A stretch of DNA of 45,293 nt, from the IMG/VR virus record IMGVR_UViG_2571042653_000011; one strand, given 5' to 3'. Source of the DNA: a virus. Lineage: Duplodnaviria; Heunggongvirae; Uroviricota; Caudoviricetes. The notes under the pieces were generated by a model. The model had not been told where the DNA came from. It searched no databases and saw nothing but the letters and a program-made list of their open reading frames with translations. Positions 2,901 through 22,111 of the stretch are shown here, one piece after another. A program made the position numbers and the translations under genes. Every line of letters begins with the position of its first letter. Position 1 is the first letter of the stretch.

Positions 2901-3092
2901 CTATTTCACCTTAATCTCAACATTTCGCAGCTTTAGCTCTACTGGCAGGTCTGACTTTCCTGTTAATGCTAATGCGAGATTTTCAGGAGTAATGAGAGCA
3001 GTTATTGTTTTCCCCCTCGCCAGACGAATAATCATTCGTATCTCGCAATCGTCACATGCTCCCGGTCGAACAATTGAGATTTGTCCGTTCAT
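2901..3092 (-). CDS. Hypothetical small phage protein (63 aa)
   Basis: Tightly packed between the Ea22-like and DUF551 genes in the same leftward operon. Confidence 0.4.
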   Translation of the reverse strand: MNGQISIVRPGACDDCEIRMIIRLARGKTITALITPENLALALTGKSDLPVELKLRNVEIKVK

Positions 3093-3093
3093 C

Positions 3094-3648
3094 TCACTTC
3101 CCCTTCACACCAATGTTGGCGGCGGCGCGCTCGGCTTCACTTTGTTCCCAAAACCACTTGTGAAGCGCCATAAGCTTTTCGTCAATCGGTGCATATTTGC
3201 GATTAAAGTAGGCCTGAGCATCTTTCTCAGATTCGTCCGGTAATTCGCCAGGGCCAAACAGTGTGTTATAAATCCATGCCAGTCCGCTCTCAGCGTCGCC
3301 AGTTGCCTGCCATTCGATAATGGCAGCCTGCATGACCAGAATGTTTTTCCCGATTAATAGGTCCAGTTCTTTGTACCGGTTGCGGATGTATGCATTCTCG
3401 CTTTGTAATTCAGCGTTTCGCTTCTCTGCTGCTTCCAGCTCATCCAGCAGCGCCAAGACGGTGGCAGGATTGGCGGCGGCTATGAATCGTTTATTGGCGC
3501 GATTATCTGGTCCTGAGCATGATGCTATGTAGTAATTGGCGTTCAGTCCGGCATCGGCAATTACTACATGGTAGTCATCAGCACACCATTCGCCTGGTGT
3601 TGCATTTTCTGCCGCCAGTCGCAGAGCCTGATAGTTAATCTCGCTCAC
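3094..3648 (-). CDS. Ea22-like early protein
   Basis: 184 aa with central coiled-coil; GTG start preceded by consensus SD AAGGAGG at 6 nt; N-terminus MSEINYQALR resembles Ea22-like prophage proteins (recall). Confidence 0.55.
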   Translation of the reverse strand: MSEINYQALRLAAENATPGEWCADDYHVVIADAGLNANYYIASCSGPDNRANKRFIAAANPATVLALLDELEAAEKRNAELQSENAYIRNRYKELDLLIGKNILVMQAAIIEWQATGDAESGLAWIYNTLFGPGELPDESEKDAQAYFNRKYAPIDEKLMALHKWFWEQSEAERAAANIGVKGK

Positions 3649-3884
3649 TGGTTGCCTCCTTTACGGATCTGCGCTGCGATGCGCGAAAAAAAAGACTCCC
3701 GCGTATGACTGTTAAGAGCTGGCGCGAACGCTGCGTTAAGAACGGCAGCATCACAGCCGTCATCGATATAGAGCGCAATTTTTTTCTCCAGGCGCGCTTT
3801 GGCTTCCTGCAACTGCATACCCCGGCACGCACGCGGGATATACTCAGCAATTTGAGCGATAGATTTTTCGTTCTGTTTAAACAT
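3645..3884 (-). CDS. Hypothetical phage protein (79 aa)
   Basis: ATG with SD GAGGTGA; stop overlaps the downstream start. Confidence 0.45.
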   Translation of the reverse strand: MFKQNEKSIAQIAEYIPRACRGMQLQEAKARLEKKIALYIDDGCDAAVLNAAFAPALNSHTRESFFSRIAAQIRKGGNQ

Positions 3885-4080
3885 GCTTCACCTCGATAGG
3901 CTTGATGGTGTCGATCAGTAGTCGGAGGCGCGTATTTTCTGCAAAGTGGCGGCGTCCGGTTTCTTTGTGGTAAAACTCGTTTTTGCCGACGACCCACATC
4001 CGCTCTGTCTGGTGAAGTTTTTTTACCTGCGGGCCGTCTTTGGTGATCACAATGCCGGTATGGGTTTTTACGATTGTCAT
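3877..4080 (-). CDS. Hypothetical phage protein (67 aa)
   Basis: ATG overlaps the stop of the upstream PAPS-reductase-like gene (ATGA). Confidence 0.45.
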   Translation of the reverse strand: MTIVKTHTGIVITKDGPQVKKLHQTERMWVVGKNEFYHKETGRRHFAENTRLRLLIDTIKPIEVKHV

Positions 4081-5609: not shown

Positions 5610-6434
5610 TCAGGCGGTGAAAGTACCAATAAAGGTTTCGACTTTGCTGTCTTTGAATTTCTCAACAAGCAGATCACGAAATTCGTTAGCCATTTCTTCC
5701 TGCACCGCTTCCAGCTGAATAATGCGCAGAACCAGTACAGGACGATCGCCAGTGATAATGCTGAGGCGTAATTTAAACGGACGTTCTTTCAGGCCTTCAA
5801 ACGGAACGCATTTAAATTCAAATGCCACTGGCATAATGTCTTTGGTCTTCGCTTCGACTGACTCCATCAGGGAGCGTTTGCCGCTGAAGTCATTATCTTC
5901 AAAATCAGCTGTCTGGTTCGCTTCAATTGTGATTTTACGGATCGCCGCAGCCGCTTTGGTTGCCTGAATGGCGTCACCATTAGCATCAAAGCCCACAAGG
6001 TAGTCGGCCCAGTCTTCAATCCATTCTGCCAGTGACTTCTGGGAGTTACGCTCGCCGTTAACAGACAACAGGGCAGAGAACGGTGCTGTCTTTTTCAGTT
6101 TGAGAGTGGCGGTGTTATCTGCGTGACCTGGTTCATCGATAGTACCCAGGTTAAGTACACTGACGGCACGCATATTATCGGCGTCGATAAAGCAGCGGGT
6201 GCCTTCATCTGCAAGATCTTTAGAATAACGGGTAAAATCATCGATGCTGGCAGTGGAAAGTGCACCACGGAAACGGAAGCGATTTAAATTAAATTTTTCC
6301 AGATCATGAATGCGGAAATTCTCAGGCAATGCCACAGCATCGGCACCAATCTTACTGATAATTTCATTAACACCCTGAGCAGAAATAAGGGCATGAATTT
6401 GATTAATTGCGGTTGCGTCTAAGTTCTGAGACAT
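5610..6434 (-). CDS. yfdQ: YfdQ-like protein (DUF2303)
   Basis: 274 aa, same length as E. coli CPS-53 YfdQ (recall); sits between the yfdP-like and yfdR-like genes. Confidence 0.6.
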
Positions 6435-12502: not shown

Positions 12503-13498
12503 GTGACCGTGAGAGCACTACTGACCCCTGAAATTGCCCCGCGTATGGGGATCGTATTGTTCAGGCCAGGTTCAGAGCTGATGCCCCTGTTTATGCAGGG
12601 GCGTGTCCTGCTGGAGCCTGAGCCGGAACGTTATTCATCTTTCGCCAGTGGTGCCGTTCCGGCGGCATCACAACCGCTGGCGGATGATCCTGCCGTTCGG
12701 GCCGTGTTCCGCAATGAGGAAGTGATCCGTCGTGCTGGTGGCGTGGAATGTCTTGAAAGCTGGTTACTTCGTGAAAAAGGCTGCCAGTGGCCTCATTCCG
12801 ACTGGCACAGCGAGAACATGACAACAATGCGACACGCGCCGGGCGCAATCCGTCTGTGCTGGCACTGCGATAACCAGCTGCGCGATCAGTTCACGGAACG
12901 GCTGGAATCAATGGCAACGGATAACTGTGCCCGCTGGGTGTTGTCTGTTGTGCGTCGGGATCTCGGTTTTGATGACAGTCACGTTGTGACAATGCCGGAA
13001 CTGTGCTGGTGGCTGATTCGTAATGACCTGGCGGATGCCTTACCGGAAAGTGCAGCCCGTAAGGCACTGAGATTACCGAAGCCTGTTGTGCCGTCTGTCA
13101 CCCGGGAAAGTGACCTTGTGCCTTCGGTTCCTGCCACCAGCATCATCCAGGATAAGGCGAAAAAGGTGCTGGCGCTGAAAGTGGATCCGGAGTCGCCGGA
13201 GTCTTTTATGTTACGCCCAAAACGTCGCCGCTGGGTTAATGAAAAGTACACACGCTGGGTTAAGACACAGCCGTGTGCATGTTGTGGAAAGCCTGCTGAT
13301 GATCCCCACCACCTGATAGGCCACGGTCAGGGGGGAATGGGTACAAAAGCGCATGACCTCTTTGTGTTGCCTTTGTGCAGAAAGCATCACGACGAGCTGC
13401 ATGCGGATACCGTGGCATTTGAAGAGAAGTATGGCTCCCAGCTGGAGCTGATATTTCGTTTTATCGATCGTGCGCTGGCAATTGGCGTGCTGGCCTGA
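12503..13498 (+). CDS. DUF968 (YdfU-like) protein with HNH-like zinc-binding C-terminus
   Basis: 331 aa; C-terminal CACCGK...HHL...H...CRKHHDELH motif; GTG start at 12503 has a weak SD, true start may be downstream. Confidence 0.6.
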
Positions 13499-14886: not shown

Positions 14887-15036
14887 TGGCGGTTTCCTGC
14901 TGTGAAAATGGGCGGCTGGTGGGTGTTGGTAGCACCTGCCAGCCATTCGCTCATGCTTACTGGTCACAAGCGAACCACGGCCCACTGCTTTAGCGCAAAA
15001 GCAGAGTGAGCCTACCAGAGTTACGCTTACTGATCC

Positions 15037-16928: not shown

Positions 16929-17136
16929 GCTTAATGGCGGACGCTGCAATTAATTCAGGAAGGTCCGCAAGGTCATCTGTCAGTGGATATGATGAAAAAT
17001 CGGCGGCAGTTCTGTTAAGAAGCGCTTTAACTAATTCCTTTTCCTTCTCCGGCAACAAGTTGATTAGAGCTACGACTGCTTGCCTGAGTGCGATTAAATC
17101 AGCAAAAGTTTGTTTTGGTAGATTTGTGTAATCCAT
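16876..17136 (-). CDS. Hypothetical protein, convergent with the inserted gene
   Basis: 86 aa from ATG 17136 with SD AGAGGTGA; acidic and Leu-rich; no family recognised. Confidence 0.35.
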   Translation of the reverse strand: MDYTNLPKQTFADLIALRQAVVALINLLPEKEKELVKALLNRTAADFSSYPLTDDLADLPELIAASAIKLTEEIYPPQKSSQNSCE

Positions 17137-17249
17137 AGTCACCTCTGTGTTTATCAGATTGACATCCTCCTCCCGCCAGTGCCCATCACTGGTGAGGTAA
17201 GATTTAACATATCCGGGGATTTGAAGCCGATAAATCCTGATAAATATCC

Positions 17250-17783
17250 ATGAACGTAAAAATCAGATACAGCCTGTCGGCTGCTGTTCTGGCACTGATT
17301 GCCGCCAGTGCTCCTGCCCCTGACATTCTCGATCAGTTTCTGGATGAAAAAGAGGGGAATCACACCACTGCATACCGCGATGGCTCCGGCATATGGACCA
17401 TCTGTCGGGGAGCAACGATGGTGGACGGTAAACCTGTTATTCCGGGAATGAAACTGTCGAAGGAAAAATGCGCCCAGGTTAACGCCATTGAGCGGGATAA
17501 GGCGCTGGCATGGGTGGAGCGCAATATAAAAGTTCCACTGACCGAGCCACAGAAAGCCGGTATCGCGTCATTCTGTCCCTATAACATTGGCCCTGGTAAG
17601 TGTTTCCCGTCGACGTTTTATAAGCGGCTGAATGCCGGTGATCGTAAGGGTGCATGTGAGGCGATTCGTTGGTGGATAAAAGATGGTGGGCGCGATTGCC
17701 GCATACGTTCAAATAACTGCTATGGGCAAGTTATTCGTCGTGACCAGGAAAGCGCATTAGCCTGTTGGGGGATAGATCAGTGA
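17250..17783 (+). CDS. SAR endolysin (T4-type lysozyme, GH24)
   Basis: 177 aa; N-terminal signal-anchor-release segment ([17 protein letters not shown]); catalytic E...D...T spacing ([18 protein letters not shown]). Confidence 0.85.
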
Positions 17784-18247
17784 GCAGAGTCGCCGCGATT
17801 ATTTATGCTCTGGTTATCTGCATCATCGTCTGCCTGTCGTGGGCGGTCAATCATTACCGTGATAACGCCATCGCCTATAAAGAACAGCGTGATAAAAAAG
17901 TCAGTGAGCTGAAGCAGGCGACCGCCACCATTACTGACATGCAGCAGCGCCAGCGTGCTGCTGATGCACTCGATGCTAAATACACGAAGGAGTTAGCTGA
18001 TGCGAAAGCTAAAAATGATGCTCTTCGGCGCAAGCTTGATAATGGTGGTCGGGTGTTCGTCAAAGGAAAATGCCCTGTGCCATCCTCAGCCGAAACCTCC
18101 AGCGCCTCCGGCATGGGCAATGATGCCACCGTCGAACTCTCTCCAGTTGCTGGACGAAACGTTCTCGGTATCCGGGACGGAATTATCCGCGACCAAACAG
18201 CACTGAGAACGCTTCAGGAATACATCAGGACGCAATGCCTTCGATGA
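17765..18247 (+). CDS. Spanin inner-membrane subunit Rz
   Basis: N-terminal TM helix then coiled-coil; likely GTG start at 17780 overlapping the endolysin stop; contains Rz1 in the +1 frame. Confidence 0.7.
18000..18206 (+). CDS. Spanin outer-membrane lipoprotein Rz1 (embedded in Rz)
   Basis: 68 aa; lipobox VVGCSS; proline-rich; SD AAGGAG 8 nt before the ATG; fully inside Rz in another frame. Confidence 0.7.
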
Positions 18248-18420
18248 TAGCGATAATTTTACTCATCATCCTTCACATCTGGCTCTGTAGACAGGATGGT
18301 GATCACTTCTGGAGTGAATCCAGATTAAACATCTCATTGCTGATGCTTGATATTGAGCATCTTGCGCGCGGTAAGGGGCTGCGTTGAGATAAGAGCCAGT
18401 CATTACAAATACCAGGATTT

Positions 18421-18482
18421 AGCCTCGCATTCGCGGGGCTTTTTATTGCCATTACAAAAGCCACTCCCTACAGAGTGGCTTT
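18421..18482 (+). terminator. Tandem hairpin terminator candidates downstream of the lysis cassette
   Basis: Hairpin at 18421-18440 followed by TTTTATT; second hairpin (stems 18460-18466 and 18473-18479) flanked by A and T runs. Confidence 0.45.
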
Positions 18483-18601
18483 GATAATGGCTTATACCCT
18501 GCACGGGATAACTTAACTGATATCCCTTTTAACGGATAAACGGAGCCAACAATGGCAGAGAATGTCGGCATTATGGCAGTGAAATTTGGATTAATCGGGG
18601 A

Positions 18602-18724
18602 TTAGAAAGATAGAGGCGAGCCGGTCAGGTAGAAATGAATCAGGCTCAAAGTGAAGCGGAAAAGGTCTGTGGCACAAACTGATGCTGCCATAATTACAGC
18701 CTGATGACTTGTGGAATGAAACAT
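18602..18724 (-). CDS. Small hydrophobic ORF (40 aa) with consensus ribosome-binding site
   Basis: Minus-strand ATG preceded by AAGGAGG at 6 nt; predicted hydrophobic core; hand-translated; no family recognised. Confidence 0.3.
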   Translation of the reverse strand: MFHSTSHQAVIMAASVCATDLFRFTLSLIHFYLTGSPLSF

Positions 18725-18803
18725 GTTGAACCTCCTTAATTGATGTTATTCGAGTGAGGAAGGCATTCTGTCCTCCTATACTGTCCAGTAAATCAAACAG
18801 GAA

Positions 18804-18827
18804 GCTTGTCTCACGTGTGAGACAAGC
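18804..18827. repeat. Perfect 11-bp inverted repeat (palindrome with 2-bp centre)
   Basis: GCTTGTCTCAC-GT-GTGAGACAAGC; candidate protein-binding site or hairpin in the gene-poor gap. Confidence 0.5.
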
Positions 18828-19269
18828 CTCTCCATTAGCGAGTTGTATTGATCACAACTCTTCAAAGAATTCATTACTGGGTAGATGAAAATAGTTTCAC
18901 GATGAATGGAGGAGGCTATGTTGGTGGCTTCTTCATTGGAGTACATATGCCCCCACGAACCCCAAAAACCTGCCGTGTTCGCGGCTACCGCAATACCACC
19001 ACAGATCCGTCAGGCTATTGCAAAAGCCACAAAAGCGAAGGCTGGAAGCAATACAAGCCGGGCCAGTCCTGTCATCAGCGCGGTTATGGTTCGCGGGGTT
19101 GTCCCTCATGCTCGCCAGTCCTGTGCGGGGGTGGAAGAAACAGGACACTCACACTAATTTGTGTGGGCATGCTGTGATGTCCTTCTGAATTATCCCCACG
19201 CCATTATGTAAAGCTCTGTTTCAGATGCTCGTCACGGTTGTCAGGCTGTCGGGTCCTCCCTGTGGGGGG

Positions 19270-19300
19270 CCCTGCCACGGGGCGGGAGCGTCGCGGAAAA
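19270..19300. other. cos-like site (cosN candidate)
   Basis: CACGGGGCGGGAGCGTCGCGG resembles the lambda cohesive-end sequence as recalled; about 170 bp upstream of the small terminase gene, followed by an A/T-rich stretch. Confidence 0.4.
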
Positions 19301-19463
19301 AGGCTAGTTTTTGCATTTCCATGGCGGCGGCAGCATGTTTGGTAATTTATTGATAATTAAAAGTTATTTCCCTTTTCACCTGTACAATATTTTTTTCTTC
19401 CTGTCATTAGACCAGTTTGCAATTAATTGAAATATATAAATAAACCTGATTTTCACCTGCCAG

Positions 19464-20003
19464 ATGGAGTTGCTTATGTCAAATGTGAGCGGGATCGGTG
19501 ATGCTTATTACTGGAGTGTTTTTAAAATCGCCGAGGCCTTTGGGCTTCACCGGGACACAGTAAAAAAACGGCTCCTCGCGGCCAACACTCCTGTGGCTGC
19601 GACTGTCAGGGGGAACCCCGTTTACGCCCTGCAGCATGTCGGGCCCGCCCTGTTTAGTGTGAAGCATGAGGCAGCAGACTCTGTTCATGATCCATCCCGT
19701 ATGGAGCCGAAAGAGAGAAAGGACTGGTACCAGTCTGAAAATGAAAGGATCAAGCTGGAAAAGGAGCAGCGAAAACTCATCCCAGTTGATGAAGTAGTCA
19801 TCGTCTATTCGTCCATGAGAAAGGCTGTCGTCCAGGTTCTGGAGACAATTCCGGATGTTCTTGAACGCGATTGCGCTCTGACTCCTCAGGCCGTCGGCGT
19901 TGTACAGCAGGCCATTGATGACCTGCGATACACTCTTCAGGAAAAATCCTACGAGGCTTGTGCTGCTGAATTAATTCCTGATGAGGAAGGAGAGAGTCTC
20001 TAG
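19464..20003 (+). CDS. Terminase small subunit (Nu1-like)
   Basis: 179 aa; N-terminal HTH-like region; directly precedes the large subunit; alternative ATG at 19476. Confidence 0.7.
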   Translation: MELLMSNVSGIGDAYYWSVFKIAEAFGLHRDTVKKRLLAANTPVAATVRGNPVYALQHVGPALFSVKHEAADSVHDPSRMEPKERKDWYQSENERIKLEKEQRKLIPVDEVVIVYSSMRKAVVQVLETIPDVLERDCALTPQAVGVVQQAIDDLRYTLQEKSYEACAAELIPDEEGESL

Positions 20004-20011
20004 GAGGAATA

Positions 20012-22111
20012 ATGGGTTTTTCATCAGCCCGAAATTTGGGAAGGGACATATCGGCAGGATTTTCCCCACCACGTCGCATGCCGATTTCGGAGGCTGTTAA
20101 AAAATTCATGCGTGTTCCCAAGGGGGCTGGTAACTCGGTGCCATGGGATCCTGAACTGACACCCTACATCATTGAGCCCATGAACTGCCTGGCATCGCGT
20201 GAATACGATGCGGTGATTTTTGTTGGTCCTGCGCGAACAGGGAAGACCATTGGTCTGATCGATGGATGGATTGTCTATACCATCGTTTGCGATCCTTCGG
20301 ACATGCTCGTTGTGCAGATGACCGAAGATAAGGCCCGCGAGCATTCTAAAAAGCGCCTCGACAGAACGTTCAGAAGCAGTGCGGCGGTAAAGAAAAGAAT
20401 GAGTCCACGTCGTAACGACAATAATGTCCATGATAAGACGTTCAGGGATGGCTCGTTCCTTAAAATTGGTTGGCCCTCGGTCAACATTATGTCGTCGTCG
20501 GATTACCGGTTTGTCGCCTTAACCGATTACGACCGTTTTCCGGAGAATATCGACAGCGAGGGTGATGGTTTCTCCCTGGCCTCAAAACGTACCACCACAT
20601 TTATGTCCGCCGGGATGACTCTGGTGGAGAGCTCGCCGGGACGTGACATCTGCGACAGCAAATGGCGACGTAAGTCGCCTCATGAAGCGCCACCGACGAC
20701 TGGTATTCTTTCCCTTTACAATCGTGGTGACCGCCGCCGCTGGTACTGGCCATGTCCGCACTGCGGTGAATATTTTCAGCCAGCTATGGATGCCATGACC
20801 GGCTACCGTAATGAACCGGATCCCTTTAAAGCCAGTGAGGCGGCGTATCTACTTTGCCCGCACTGCAGCGGCATTATCACTGCGGAGAAAAAGCGTGAGC
20901 TCAATAGTGCAGGAGTCTGGTTGCGTGAAGGTCAGGTCATTGATCGTAACGGCAACGTTTCCGGTGAACCGCGCCGCTCCCGTATCGCCAGTTTCTGGAT
21001 GGAAGGGCCAGCTGCTGCGTATCAGACCTGGGCGCAACTGGTTTACAAATTACTGACTGCAGAACAGGAGTATGAAGCGACAGGAAGCGAAGAAACACTC
21101 AGGGCGGTTATCAACACCGACTGGGGATTGCCTTATCTTCCTCGTGCCAGCATGGAGCAACGAAAAAGTGAACTGCTTGAGCAGCGGGCAGAGCCAGTTC
21201 CTTCCTGCAGTGTGCCGGATGGCGTTAATTTCCTTGTGGCGACAGTGGATGTGCAGGCGGGACGTCATCGCCGTTTTGTGGTTCAGGTAACTGGCTATGG
21301 CAGTCGTGGCGAACGCTGGATTATTGATCGTTACAATATCACGCAGTCATTGCGCAGTGACTGCGACGGGGAGAGCCAGCGAATTGATCCGGCCAGCTAT
21401 CCGGAAGACTGGGATGTCCTGCTGACGGATGTTTTTCATAAAAGCTGGCCGCTGGCCTCCGATCCTTCTCAACAAATGCGACTGATGGCAATGGCGGTGG
21501 ACTCCGGCGGTGAAGACGGGGTCACTGATAATGCCTATAAATTCTGGCGTCGTTGCCGTCGTGATGGCCTTGGTAAACGTATTTACCTGTTTAAGGGCGA
21601 CAGCATCCGGCGCGCAAAACTGATCACCCGTACATTCCCTGATAACACCGGACGAACGGGCCGACGGGCGCAGGCCGCAGGTGATGTGCCGCTCTGGCTT
21701 CTTCAGACGGATGCACTGAAAGACCGGGTGAATAACGCGTTATGGCGTGACTCGCCAGGTCCCGGCTATGTGCATTTCCCTGACTGGCTGGGGAGCTGGT
21801 TTTACGACGAACTGACGTATGAAGAGCGGAGCAGTGACGGGAAATGGAGTAAGCCGGGTCGCGGTGCCAACGAAGCTTTTGACCTGATGGTGTATGCCGA
21901 GGCTCTGGTCATTCTGCATGGATACGAAAAGATCCGCTGGCCGGATGCACCGGAGTGGGCGAGCCGGGAAACCTGGCTGGAGTGTGTCCCGGACAGTACC
22001 GAACCGTCACCCTCACCGGAACCGGTATCCACGCCTGTTAAAAAACAAAAACGGAAGAAAACAGTAACTGACGATGTTAACCCCTGGCTGACTTCCGGAG
22101 GATGGTTATGA
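20012..22111 (+). CDS. Terminase large subunit (GpA-like)
   Basis: 699 aa; Walker A VGPARTGKT; strong SD GGAGG; typical size. Confidence 0.9.
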   Translation: MGFSSARNLGRDISAGFSPPRRMPISEAVKKFMRVPKGAGNSVPWDPELTPYIIEPMNCLASREYDAVIFVGPARTGKTIGLIDGWIVYTIVCDPSDMLVVQMTEDKAREHSKKRLDRTFRSSAAVKKRMSPRRNDNNVHDKTFRDGSFLKIGWPSVNIMSSSDYRFVALTDYDRFPENIDSEGDGFSLASKRTTTFMSAGMTLVESSPGRDICDSKWRRKSPHEAPPTTGILSLYNRGDRRRWYWPCPHCGEYFQPAMDAMTGYRNEPDPFKASEAAYLLCPHCSGIITAEKKRELNSAGVWLREGQVIDRNGNVSGEPRRSRIASFWMEGPAAAYQTWAQLVYKLLTAEQEYEATGSEETLRAVINTDWGLPYLPRASMEQRKSELLEQRAEPVPSCSVPDGVNFLVATVDVQAGRHRRFVVQVTGYGSRGERWIIDRYNITQSLRSDCDGESQRIDPASYPEDWDVLLTDVFHKSWPLASDPSQQMRLMAMAVDSGGEDGVTDNAYKFWRRCRRDGLGKRIYLFKGDSIRRAKLITRTFPDNTGRTGRRAQAAGDVPLWLLQTDALKDRVNNALWRDSPGPGYVHFPDWLGSWFYDELTYEERSSDGKWSKPGRGANEAFDLMVYAEALVILHGYEKIRWPDAPEWASRETWLECVPDSTEPSPSPEPVSTPVKKQKRKKTVTDDVNPWLTSGGWL

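Follow-up and report, generated by a model that had tools for sequence, protein, structure and literature searches.

What occupies the gap between the lysis genes and the terminase genes of this prophage? The window, by which we mean the whole 45,293-nucleotide (nt) stretch analysed here (IMG/VR record IMGVR_UViG_2571042653_000011), is a lambdoid E. coli prophage whose insertion site adjoins zur/dinF, and the list of its open reading frames (ORFs) contains no intact long gene in the interval 18250-19260. The original prediction placed this interval between Rz and cos, noted a small minus-strand ORF, a perfect palindrome and tandem terminators within it, and compared the layout with type I toxin or small-RNA loci. 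Our analysis suggests that the interval is mostly scar tissue from the joining of phage modules, together with one functional unit on the minus strand that runs from 18850 down to 18602. Read on that strand, the unit comprises a predicted T7-like promoter (P1), the palindrome, a predicted SP6/K1E-type promoter (P2), a 52-nt leader, the Shine-Dalgarno (SD) sequence AAGGAGG and an ORF encoding 40 amino acids. We propose that this cassette is an infection-triggered peptide gene, a 'tripwire' for T7-like or SP6/K1E-like phages that is probably anti-phage, and we put the probability of this reading at roughly 45%.

The ORF lies at 18602..18724 on the minus strand and encodes MFHSTSHQAVIMAASVCATDLFRFTLSLIHFYLTGSPLSF, and its SD at 18731..18737 stands 6 nt from the ATG, exactly as had been predicted. 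In all of the approximately 120 copies examined the ORF is intact and has a strong SD, which is AAGGAGG in every E. coli-type copy and AAGGAG or GGAGG in Klebsiella and distant copies. A search of 5.8 billion proteins returned as relatives only 40-amino-acid E. coli and 38-amino-acid Klebsiella forms, all annotated as 'hypothetical' at best, and a profile search of 1.84 billion representatives added two more distant members of 37 and 38 amino acids. The C-terminal part of the peptide, DLFRFTLSLIHFYLTGSPLSF, is conserved and the N-terminal half is variable; all members share the C-terminal motif (F/R)F(T/I)LS(L/V)(I/A/T)H(F/Y)(Y/F)LTG(S/Y)PL(S/T)F. At the Klebsiella and distant loci the DNA encoding the N-terminus cannot be aligned with that of E. 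coli, yet the strong SD, the ATG and the length of the ORF are retained.

The C-terminal half of the ORF is antisense to the remnant of an o-spanin gene. We evaluated selection in both frames, using loci that had been re-sampled with an anchor outside the conserved block. In its own frame, the last 17 codons have accumulated 15 synonymous and 10 nonsynonymous changes among 25 distinct substitutions, against an expected synonymous fraction of 0.26 (p = 3e-4), whereas a count in the overlapping o-spanin frame gives 3 synonymous to 21 nonsynonymous. The C-terminal 17 codons of the ORF are under purifying selection in their own frame and not in that of the o-spanin. Further, the cassette persists beside o-spanin remnants that are cut at three different points and, elsewhere, beside intact spanin genes, and in 16 other enterobacterial species the genes for LysC-type spanins end earlier and carry neither the ORF nor the hairpin. 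We therefore rejected the view of the ORF as a chance antisense frame of the o-spanin 3' end, on the grounds of the frame-specific synonymous bias, the retention of the ORF by truncated spanins and its absence from the LysC-type loci of those 16 species. Together these comparisons indicate that the 40-codon ORF is very probably a real gene.

AlphaFold models the peptide as one helix spanning residues 2-34, with a mean predicted local distance difference test (pLDDT) score of 83. The best 19-residue Kyte-Doolittle window scores 1.53 for the peptide of the window, 0.90 for the SfIV type and 1.83 for the Klebsiella form, and none of these three forms had a match in PADLOC-DB 2.0 at E <= 1. As a separate observation, synonymous changes among E. 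coli variants fall below random expectation in codons 2-20 (18668-18720, minus strand); this could reflect diversifying selection or a constraint on the plus strand, where, in a five-sequence alignment, ATAATTACAG at 18690-18699 is invariant.

Between the two promoters lies the palindrome, a perfect inverted repeat of 11+2+11 nt on the minus strand at 18804..18827 (GCTTGTCTCAC-GT-GTGAGACAAGC), and here too the sequence bears out what had been described. With its flanks (18797-18833) it corresponds to positions +1 to +37 of the predicted P1 transcript and is followed by the U-rich CUUCCUGUUUGAUUU; it folds with a free energy of -22.4 kcal/mol and resembled a terminator in the scan on the minus strand only. 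In an alignment of 16 copies from prophages and lytic phages, 89% of cells form a pair and 7 of the 11 pairs have changed on both sides, values that none of 500 shuffles matched. The compensatory changes are symmetric, and G·U pairs occur in the mRNA sense of the copies in phage LL11, which favours an RNA hairpin over a protein site in DNA. By-eye comparison with the consensus sites of CRP, FNR, LexA, the LacI family and 434-type repressors gave no fit to a protein operator. An integron attC-like site was also rejected: one variant of the palindrome fits RYYYAAC/GTTRRRY, but that of the window does not.

The same hairpin is a repeated element of lytic phages. LL11 carries TGTCTCAC..GTGAGACA in four full copies, three intergenic and one inside the primase gene, and in two partial ones (at 5942, 7357, 8768, 9912, 14903 and 31232 of that genome, L220). 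For five of these six copies a stop codon lies no more than about 75 nt before the hairpin, and two of the five directly precede a promoter. One of these two stands just after the RNA polymerase gene, where hairpin, UUAUUU and promoter follow one another in what looks like an early terminator ahead of the first phage promoter. More generally, the LL11 hairpin may be a terminator, an attenuator or an RNA-stabilising element; in LL11 it is often extended by AAGG/CCUU flanks with G·U pairs, and no functional description of the repeated K1E-like hairpin was found in the accessible literature. A second type of arms, TGTCCAAC..GTTGGACA (CCAAC-type), occurs in other prophages; genomes of lytic Klebsiella, Proteus, Salmonella and Citrobacter podophages contain it 2-4 times each. 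In the lytic Klebsiella phages ZK1 and H01 this hairpin stands directly downstream of the polymerase gene and is immediately followed by a promoter reading ..TGTGGCGAGTATA with GAAC from its start. Both elements, the hairpin and a promoter of that type, are also present in the Klebsiella prophage cassette, and one distant locus has a third arm variant, TGTCCAGC..GCTGGACA. These sequence matches indicate that the palindrome reproduces a hairpin that K1E/SP6-like lytic phages carry in several copies, and is not an operator or small-RNA terminator of the prophage's own. Phage Kp4864-1 (L008) has, in addition, an extra upstream hairpin at 2838-2862, TTGTCTCTCATAAGAGACAA, preceded by GGATGGGC, which resembles the start of the P1 transcript; no promoter was recognisable there, and this may be a third unit for another polymerase.

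Promoters of single-subunit phage RNA polymerases are short, highly conserved and present in multiple copies in their own genomes (12 in SP6 and 18 in T7), with those of K1E and SP6 forming clusters of their own (PMC11880802). We scanned both strands of the whole 45 kb, plus 200 shuffles of it, with position weight matrices built from 10 promoters of LL11 and 15 promoters of phage 285P. The first matrix identified P2, a predicted promoter of SP6/K1E type (Vectrevirus) at 18771..18793 on the minus strand, which from -17 to +6 reads ATTTACTGGACAGTATA and then GGAGGA. With its -17 position at 18793 it scored 28.7 bits, as compared with 10.2 bits for the next best site, 23.8 for the top of the 200 shuffles and a natural range of 28.9-35.8 in LL11. 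The second identified P1, a predicted T7-like promoter of Berlinvirus type at 18828..18850 on the same strand, reading CAATACAACTCGCTAAT and then GGAGAG from -17 to +6; its score, with -17 at 18850, was 22.1 bits, as compared with 7.6 for the next best site, 20.1 for the top shuffle and a natural range of 21.1-35.7 in 285P. There is thus exactly one outlier per matrix in the window, both on the minus strand, and by sequence score P2 belongs with the promoters of the SP6/K1E group and P1 with those of the T7 group. Promoters of these kinds serve only the RNA polymerases of virulent T7-like and SP6/K1E-like phages. The predicted start of P1 is at 18833 and that of P2 at 18776, which gives the 52-nt leader to the ORF; a highly conserved block upstream of the ATG, 18718-18777, coincides with this leader.

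Matches between the related prophages and sequenced lytic phages are in part exact. The commonest P2 of E. coli prophages, ATTTACTGGACACTATAGAAGGA, scores 35.8 bits and is identical at 23 of 23 positions to the LL11 promoter at 13325, one of ten such promoters in that genome, all on the plus strand. It is also identical at 22 of 22 positions to an annotated K1E promoter and, among the BLAST matches listed, occurs at 7-8 places per genome in most Vectrevirus genomes. In Shigella phage SfIV, P2 is an SP6/Zindervirus variant, the 44-mer of which is identical at 31 of 32 positions to an intergenic promoter of UAB_Phi78 and has 4-5 matches per genome in SP6-like phages of Salmonella and Klebsiella. 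The consensus P1, CAATACAACTCACTAAT and then GG upstream of the palindrome, matches the 285P promoter at 12823 at every position from -17 to +2, the P1 of SfIV scores 32.2 bits, and the BLAST matches of P1 coincide with annotated promoters of other T7-like phages. Within 1.57 Mb of prophage DNA, 241 of the 258 strong promoter matches fall in the cassette. Scores in the natural range were obtained for P1 in 117 and for a Vectrevirus-type P2 in 96 of 119 E. coli-type copies, and most of the 23 copies outside the latter count carry SP6-type or other variants of P2.

The prophage has no annotated gene for a single-subunit RNA polymerase. Neither the window nor the consensus copy yielded, on scanning, a sigma-70-like promoter for the ORF or for an antisense RNA, the scan covering both strands in the E. 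coli copies, and inspection by eye of the DNA upstream of the ORF found nothing convincing for sigma-70, sigma-54 or sigma-E. A second inverted repeat, GAGTTGT-ATTGATC-ACAACTC at 18841-18861, has its right arm within P1 (-12 to -6), and a similar set-up exists in LL11 at 14926, with an inverted copy that pairs with the upstream half of a promoter (TGTCCGGTATTTACTGGACA). An isolated SP6/K1E-like site, TTTTACATTACACTATAGAAG (20.6 bits), occurs outside the cassette on the minus strand of an HK97-like viral contig (L081, offset about 3697), with neither hairpin nor small ORF noted after it.

The order of hairpin, one or more SP6-type promoters, short leader, SD and an ORF for 37-40 amino acids recurs in E. 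coli, SfIV and Klebsiella prophages and at two distant loci (L225 and L226). E. coli alone has three hairpin/promoter combinations, and the E. coli, Shigella and Klebsiella forms have a T7-like promoter added upstream. Four of the promoter variants match a sequenced lytic phage type (K1E type, SP6 type, Klebsiella-phage type and Berlinvirus type); those of L225 and L226 resemble the SP6 group and are unmatched to any particular phage. Had one captured fragment simply decayed, such lineage-specific variants would not be expected. Among 5,426 complete E. coli genomes, 632 carry the cassette region (18600-18945), O157:H7 strains included, and 35 of 40 of the records listed have no annotated feature under the match.

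At two loci the segment 18724-19010, with promoters, hairpin and the start of an HNH gene, is duplicated in tandem (L005, about 3046-3980; L044, about 1829-2647). In the second copy of these duplications the SD has decayed to ACGGAGC and the start codon to ACG, and P2 reads ...GTATAGGGGGG. In a decayed prophage of E. coli SHP24 (L181, 2501-2649), the ORF and its SD are fused to a truncated tail-sheath gene at the equivalent of 18748; this ORF has neither promoters nor hairpin, and iss lies just downstream on the same strand.

These data allow us to hypothesise how the cassette might work. From the identity of its promoters and hairpins with those of lytic phages, its conserved architecture and the purifying selection on its ORF, we infer transcription by phage polymerases, silence in their absence and a role against phages. 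In the uninfected lysogen the mini-gene would be off, having no host-type promoter and being shielded by the hairpin from host polymerase entering from upstream. On infection by a virulent T7-like or SP6/K1E-like phage, the phage RNA polymerase, which is made early, would recognise the mimic promoters and transcribe the mini-gene at a high level. The small helical peptide would then act against the invader, most likely through membrane damage, as in abortive infection, or through inhibition of a phage function. A membrane-active or phage-inhibiting peptide that protects the lysogen population is our most economical guess at its role, held with moderate confidence.

Several points weigh against this hypothesis. 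The peptide has no match in Pfam, PHROGs, NCBIfam or known defence and toxin families, and its hydrophobicity reaches the level of a transmembrane segment in the Klebsiella form only. The N-terminal half of the ORF shows no sign of purifying selection: of its variable alleles, 24 are nonsynonymous and 3 synonymous. In the copy of the window, P2 has the extra mismatches C-5G and A+2G and P1 has A-6G, so that the scores of both lie at the bottom of the natural range and this copy may be weakened. Thirteen related contigs (among them L062, L067-L069, L072, L073, L076-L078, L082, L084 and L085) join 18605 directly to 18940 over an AG microhomology and lack precisely the 334 base pairs (bp) of the cassette, which is therefore dispensable for the prophage. 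P1 would not lead to expression of the ORF should phage polymerases, too, stop at the hairpin. Finally, a short peptide gene present once in the chromosome might prove too slow against a T7-like infection.

How else could a prophage come to hold these promoters? One alternative is that the prophage, much like a satellite, exploits the polymerase of the invader, for example to make long leftward transcripts or to express bor/iss. The promoters are in tandem and the prophage has no polymerase gene of its own, as this alternative would have it, and in the commonest context, seen at about 60 related loci, bor/iss lies some 180 nt after the ORF on the same strand. Chen and Schneider are said to have proposed something like the exploitation of an invader's polymerase for tandem-promoter islands, and the title of that 2006 work shows that tandem T7-like promoters in enterobacterial islands were already known. 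However, what is conserved alongside the promoters in each lineage is the small ORF and not bor, which is absent downstream, as is iss, in the window, in SfIV and at the Klebsiella and distant loci, and leftward transcripts that continued past the ORF would be antisense to the lysis genes. We regard exploitation of this kind as unlikely.

Similarly improbable, in our estimate, is that the cassette is a neutral relic, in which an SP6/K1E-like hairpin and promoter, and later a T7-like promoter, were caught by illegitimate recombination beside a fortuitous ORF. Such a history would suit an interval full of DUF2560, o-spanin and HNH stubs that also shows a presence/absence indel and a tandem duplication, and it would suit the mismatches in the promoters of the window copy and an N-terminal half that evolves as if unconstrained. 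It does not account for change that is biased towards synonymous sites in the frame of the ORF only, nor for the retention of SD, ATG and length where the N-terminal DNA is unalignable. The promoters, moreover, are of at least five variants, several of which match sequenced lytic phages, instead of stages in the decay of one, and nearly all copies score in the natural range. No homologue of the ORF was found in LL11 or 285P, and the ORF was therefore not acquired together with the promoters.

The type I toxin-antitoxin or small-RNA locus favoured by the original prediction, in which a membrane toxin is held in check by an antisense RNA made by host polymerase, fares worse still. The short, helical and partly hydrophobic peptide, its strong SD and the conserved 5' leader would all be at home in such a locus, and in the minimum free energy fold, though not in the centroid, the SD is paired with CCUUCCU, an anti-SD-like sequence of the leader. 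In the Klebsiella copy, one plus-strand site antisense to the start codon matches the sigma-70 pattern at 9 of 12 positions, but this is within chance expectation (0.8 per region), and no sigma-70-like promoter was found on either strand of the E. coli copies. An Rfam search over 17000-20500 returned sub-threshold chance matches only. The P2 transcript folds at -34.1 kcal/mol as compared with a shuffle mean of -36.4 (z +0.61), which is not exceptional; the plus-strand hairpin lacks a U tract, the palindrome copies a hairpin of lytic phages, and the P2 transcript, from +1 to +52, accounts exactly for the conservation of the leader. These results do not uphold that classification, to which we assign a low probability. 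Last, a role for the ORF in regulating bor/iss, as a leader peptide or as an upstream ORF, is highly improbable: the position of the ORF ahead of bor/iss and its conserved C-terminus with a variable N-terminus, the pattern of regulatory nascent peptides, would fit, but it is conserved where bor/iss is absent downstream.

The tripwire reading can also be set against systems that are already known. The closest sequence relatives of the cassette's control region are the promoters of the Autographiviridae (SP6/K1E group, Molineuxvirinae; T7 group, Studiervirinae, Berlinvirus type), with 23-bp matches, some exact, to LL11, K1E, UAB_Phi78 and 285P that share the initiating G and the flanks. The arrangement of a hairpin and then a promoter, found after the polymerase gene of the lytic phages, is likewise that of the prophage cassette. 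The prophage sites differ in that they lie in temperate lambdoid or HK97-like prophages without the cognate polymerase gene, are present as one of each promoter rather than as the 10-15 per genome of lytic phages, and point against the late operon of the prophage.

Tandem T7-like promoters in enterobacterial genomes are the subject of an earlier study (Chen & Schneider, Nucleic Acids Res 2006, 34:1133), which a review ties to the sitABCD island. Those islands reportedly resemble the cassette in having T7-group promoters in tandem, in prophage-like DNA and without a cognate polymerase gene. In contrast, the promoters of the cassette are 57 nt apart and of two polymerase groups, one T7-like and one SP6/K1E-like; they lie on either side of a lytic-phage hairpin and precede a conserved ORF for 37-40 amino acids in full-size lambdoid prophages. 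The islands of 2006 reportedly formed 12 clusters in nine enteropathogens, each a prophage-like island of 4-13 kb with 2-3 promoters within 150-620 bp.

Type I toxin-antitoxin systems such as hok/sok, ldr/rdl, ibs/sib and tisB/istR share with the cassette a short, helical, partly hydrophobic peptide, a strong ribosome-binding site and a mobile element as host. Unlike them, the cassette lacks an antisense RNA gene and a highly structured mRNA, it has neither an Rfam match nor sequence similarity to these systems, and its control apparently runs through promoters for a foreign polymerase instead of an antitoxin RNA. The moron slot of lambda-like phages, occupied by bor/iss, is the same slot after the lysis cassette, read against the late operon, and the cassette often lies beside bor/iss; morons, however, have a host-type promoter of their own and are expressed in the lysogen, and no such promoter was detected here. 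In its proposed logic the cassette recalls the 'triggered suicide' reportedly engineered in Lactococcus by Djordjevic et al. in 1997, in which a phage-inducible promoter was fused to a lethal gene, as in both a gene would stay silent until the transcription machinery of the invader acts. That system is man-made and combines a host-polymerase promoter with a phage factor, whereas the cassette would be natural and would mimic the promoters of phage polymerases directly. Our full-text literature searches found no account of the peptide, of the layout of hairpin, promoter and mini-gene, or of a natural defence that a phage-polymerase promoter sets off. Both prophage-encoded defence and the occurrence of T7-like promoters in prophage-like DNA are already known; what would be of interest is the apparent wiring of the cassette to the promoters of lytic phages.

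The remainder of the interval is explained by its mosaic make-up. RefSeq has an annotated copy, 100% identical, in strain FDAARGOS_1304. The flanks are Rz, with Rz1 embedded in it, on one side and a lambda-type DUF1441 small terminase followed by the large terminase on the other. BLAST comparison with phage and E. coli collections divides the DNA into three segments with sharp edges. Segment A, which extends up to 18561, is common to P22-like, HK022-like and Stx phages and ends ten nt inside a gene of the DUF2560 family. What is left of this gene is a plus-strand stub at 18485..18561 comprising the upstream region and the first 10 or so nt from an ATG at about 18552, where the start of the Sf6 gene also maps; identity to P22-like and HK022-like phages is 98-100% and extends up to 18561 only.

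Segment B, from 18563 to about 19093, is common to SfIV and to HK97-like E. coli prophages. Its left edge lies inside the 3' end of a LysC-type o-spanin gene (SfIV gp53-like), of which alignment with SfIV and Kp4864-1 and tblastn identify the broken remnant at 18563..18650 on the plus strand, where it overlaps, in antisense, the C-terminal half of the 40-codon ORF and the flank 3' of it. Stop codons interrupt this remnant in the window; SfIV and Klebsiella phage Kp4864-1 have the intact gene. The right edge falls 50 codons into an HNH endonuclease gene of the HK97 gp74 type, a kind of gene that HK97-like terminases need; most HNH genes of related contigs have quite different DNA upstream. The plus-strand remnant (18947..19096, ATG at 18947) matches phrog_144 over residues 1-49 only (E 2e-8) and had no Pfam match, the catalytic domain PF01844, present at 66-112 of the intact SfIV homologue, being absent. 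In the identical prophage RefSeq labels it a pseudogene ('HNH endonuclease, incomplete, missing C-terminus'). The original prediction was right that the interval has no convincing long ORF, but its description of the overlapping ORFs as low-complexity does not hold for the 109-amino-acid ORF at 18848-19177, which contains this HNH start.

Segment C, from about 19088, is lambda-type DNA. The part at 19088..19470 on the plus strand is 95.8% identical to the DNA upstream of the terminase genes of HannyBb and leads up to the Nu1-like DUF1441 small terminase gene at 19464-20003. The cos site is presumed to lie within 19088-19470, although the lambda cosN pattern, with up to 3 mismatches allowed, had no match; of the placement between Rz and cos, only the Rz side was confirmed. 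The gap between Rz and the terminase genes is the record of at least three module exchanges together with one probable functional cassette.

On the lysis side, the Rz i-spanin gene occupies 17765..18247 on the plus strand (PF03245, E 2.5e-28; 'lysis protein' in the RefSeq copy of the identical prophage), and the Rz1 o-spanin ORF embedded within it, at 18000-18206 on the plus strand in the ORF list, is proline-rich, has the lipobox LIMVVGC and is unannotated in the RefSeq copies. A 50-amino-acid plus-strand ORF at 18235..18387 overlaps the Rz stop codon and belongs to phrog_11822 (E 9e-38; WP_001139675.1). It has a hydrophobic N-terminal segment (best 19-residue Kyte-Doolittle window 2.07), had no match in PADLOC-DB 2.0 at E <= 1, and could be a further lysis-cassette or membrane protein; ORFs of this family are kept after Rz in P22-like, HK022-like and lambdoid phages and are followed by a canonical terminator. 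This ORF, the HNH and o-spanin remnants and the two phage-polymerase promoters had been overlooked in the original prediction.

The tandem terminators that had been described next to this ORF are half right. At 18421..18446 on the plus strand the terminator scan found an intrinsic terminator with an 8-bp G+C-rich stem, a 4-nt loop and U5 (fold -14.1 kcal/mol, z -2.7), and the annotation of phage Ayreon has a 'terminator' for the hairpin 18421-18440. The second element, at 18448..18491, is a very stable interrupted hairpin of 17 bp (-26.8 kcal/mol on the plus strand, z -8.2; -25.6 kcal/mol on the minus strand), and it fails as a terminator of the plus strand because it has no clean U tract there; read on the minus strand, the inner stem has UUUUGU after it. 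Apart from the interval, the left edge of the prophage (about 1-575, corresponding to L222 1762-2334) carries a RefSeq Panacea-domain protein and then small hypothetical genes, possibly a toxin-antitoxin or defence module.

What would the cassette mean for enterobacterial phages and their hosts? More tentatively than for this one locus, we suggest that temperate phages of the Enterobacteriaceae may possess a 'promoter-mimic tripwire' of natural origin, in which a silent mini-gene follows copies of the promoters and terminator-like hairpin of virulent phages; its peptide would abort infection, and the promoter variants would co-evolve with the local lytic phages. As the promoters would be copied from virulent phages of the same host, the RNA polymerase of the invader would itself switch the peptide on. 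There is a substantial chance that such a tripwire would be a previously undescribed sensing principle, the direct transcriptional capture of a phage polymerase. The signals sensed by known defence systems are phage proteins, nucleic acids or host shut-off; a gene wired directly to the polymerase of the invader would be a sensor of another, very simple kind. If true, this would explain why exact K1E-, SP6- and T7-type promoters occur in about 12% of complete E. coli genomes, at a spot left empty by annotation, and would give the 'tandem T7-like promoters' of enterobacterial genomes reported in 2006 a testable function. It would also be relevant to T7, SP6 and K1E expression systems, where strains may carry such cassettes, and to phage therapy, for which K1E/K1-5, SP6-like and T7-like phages are common candidates.

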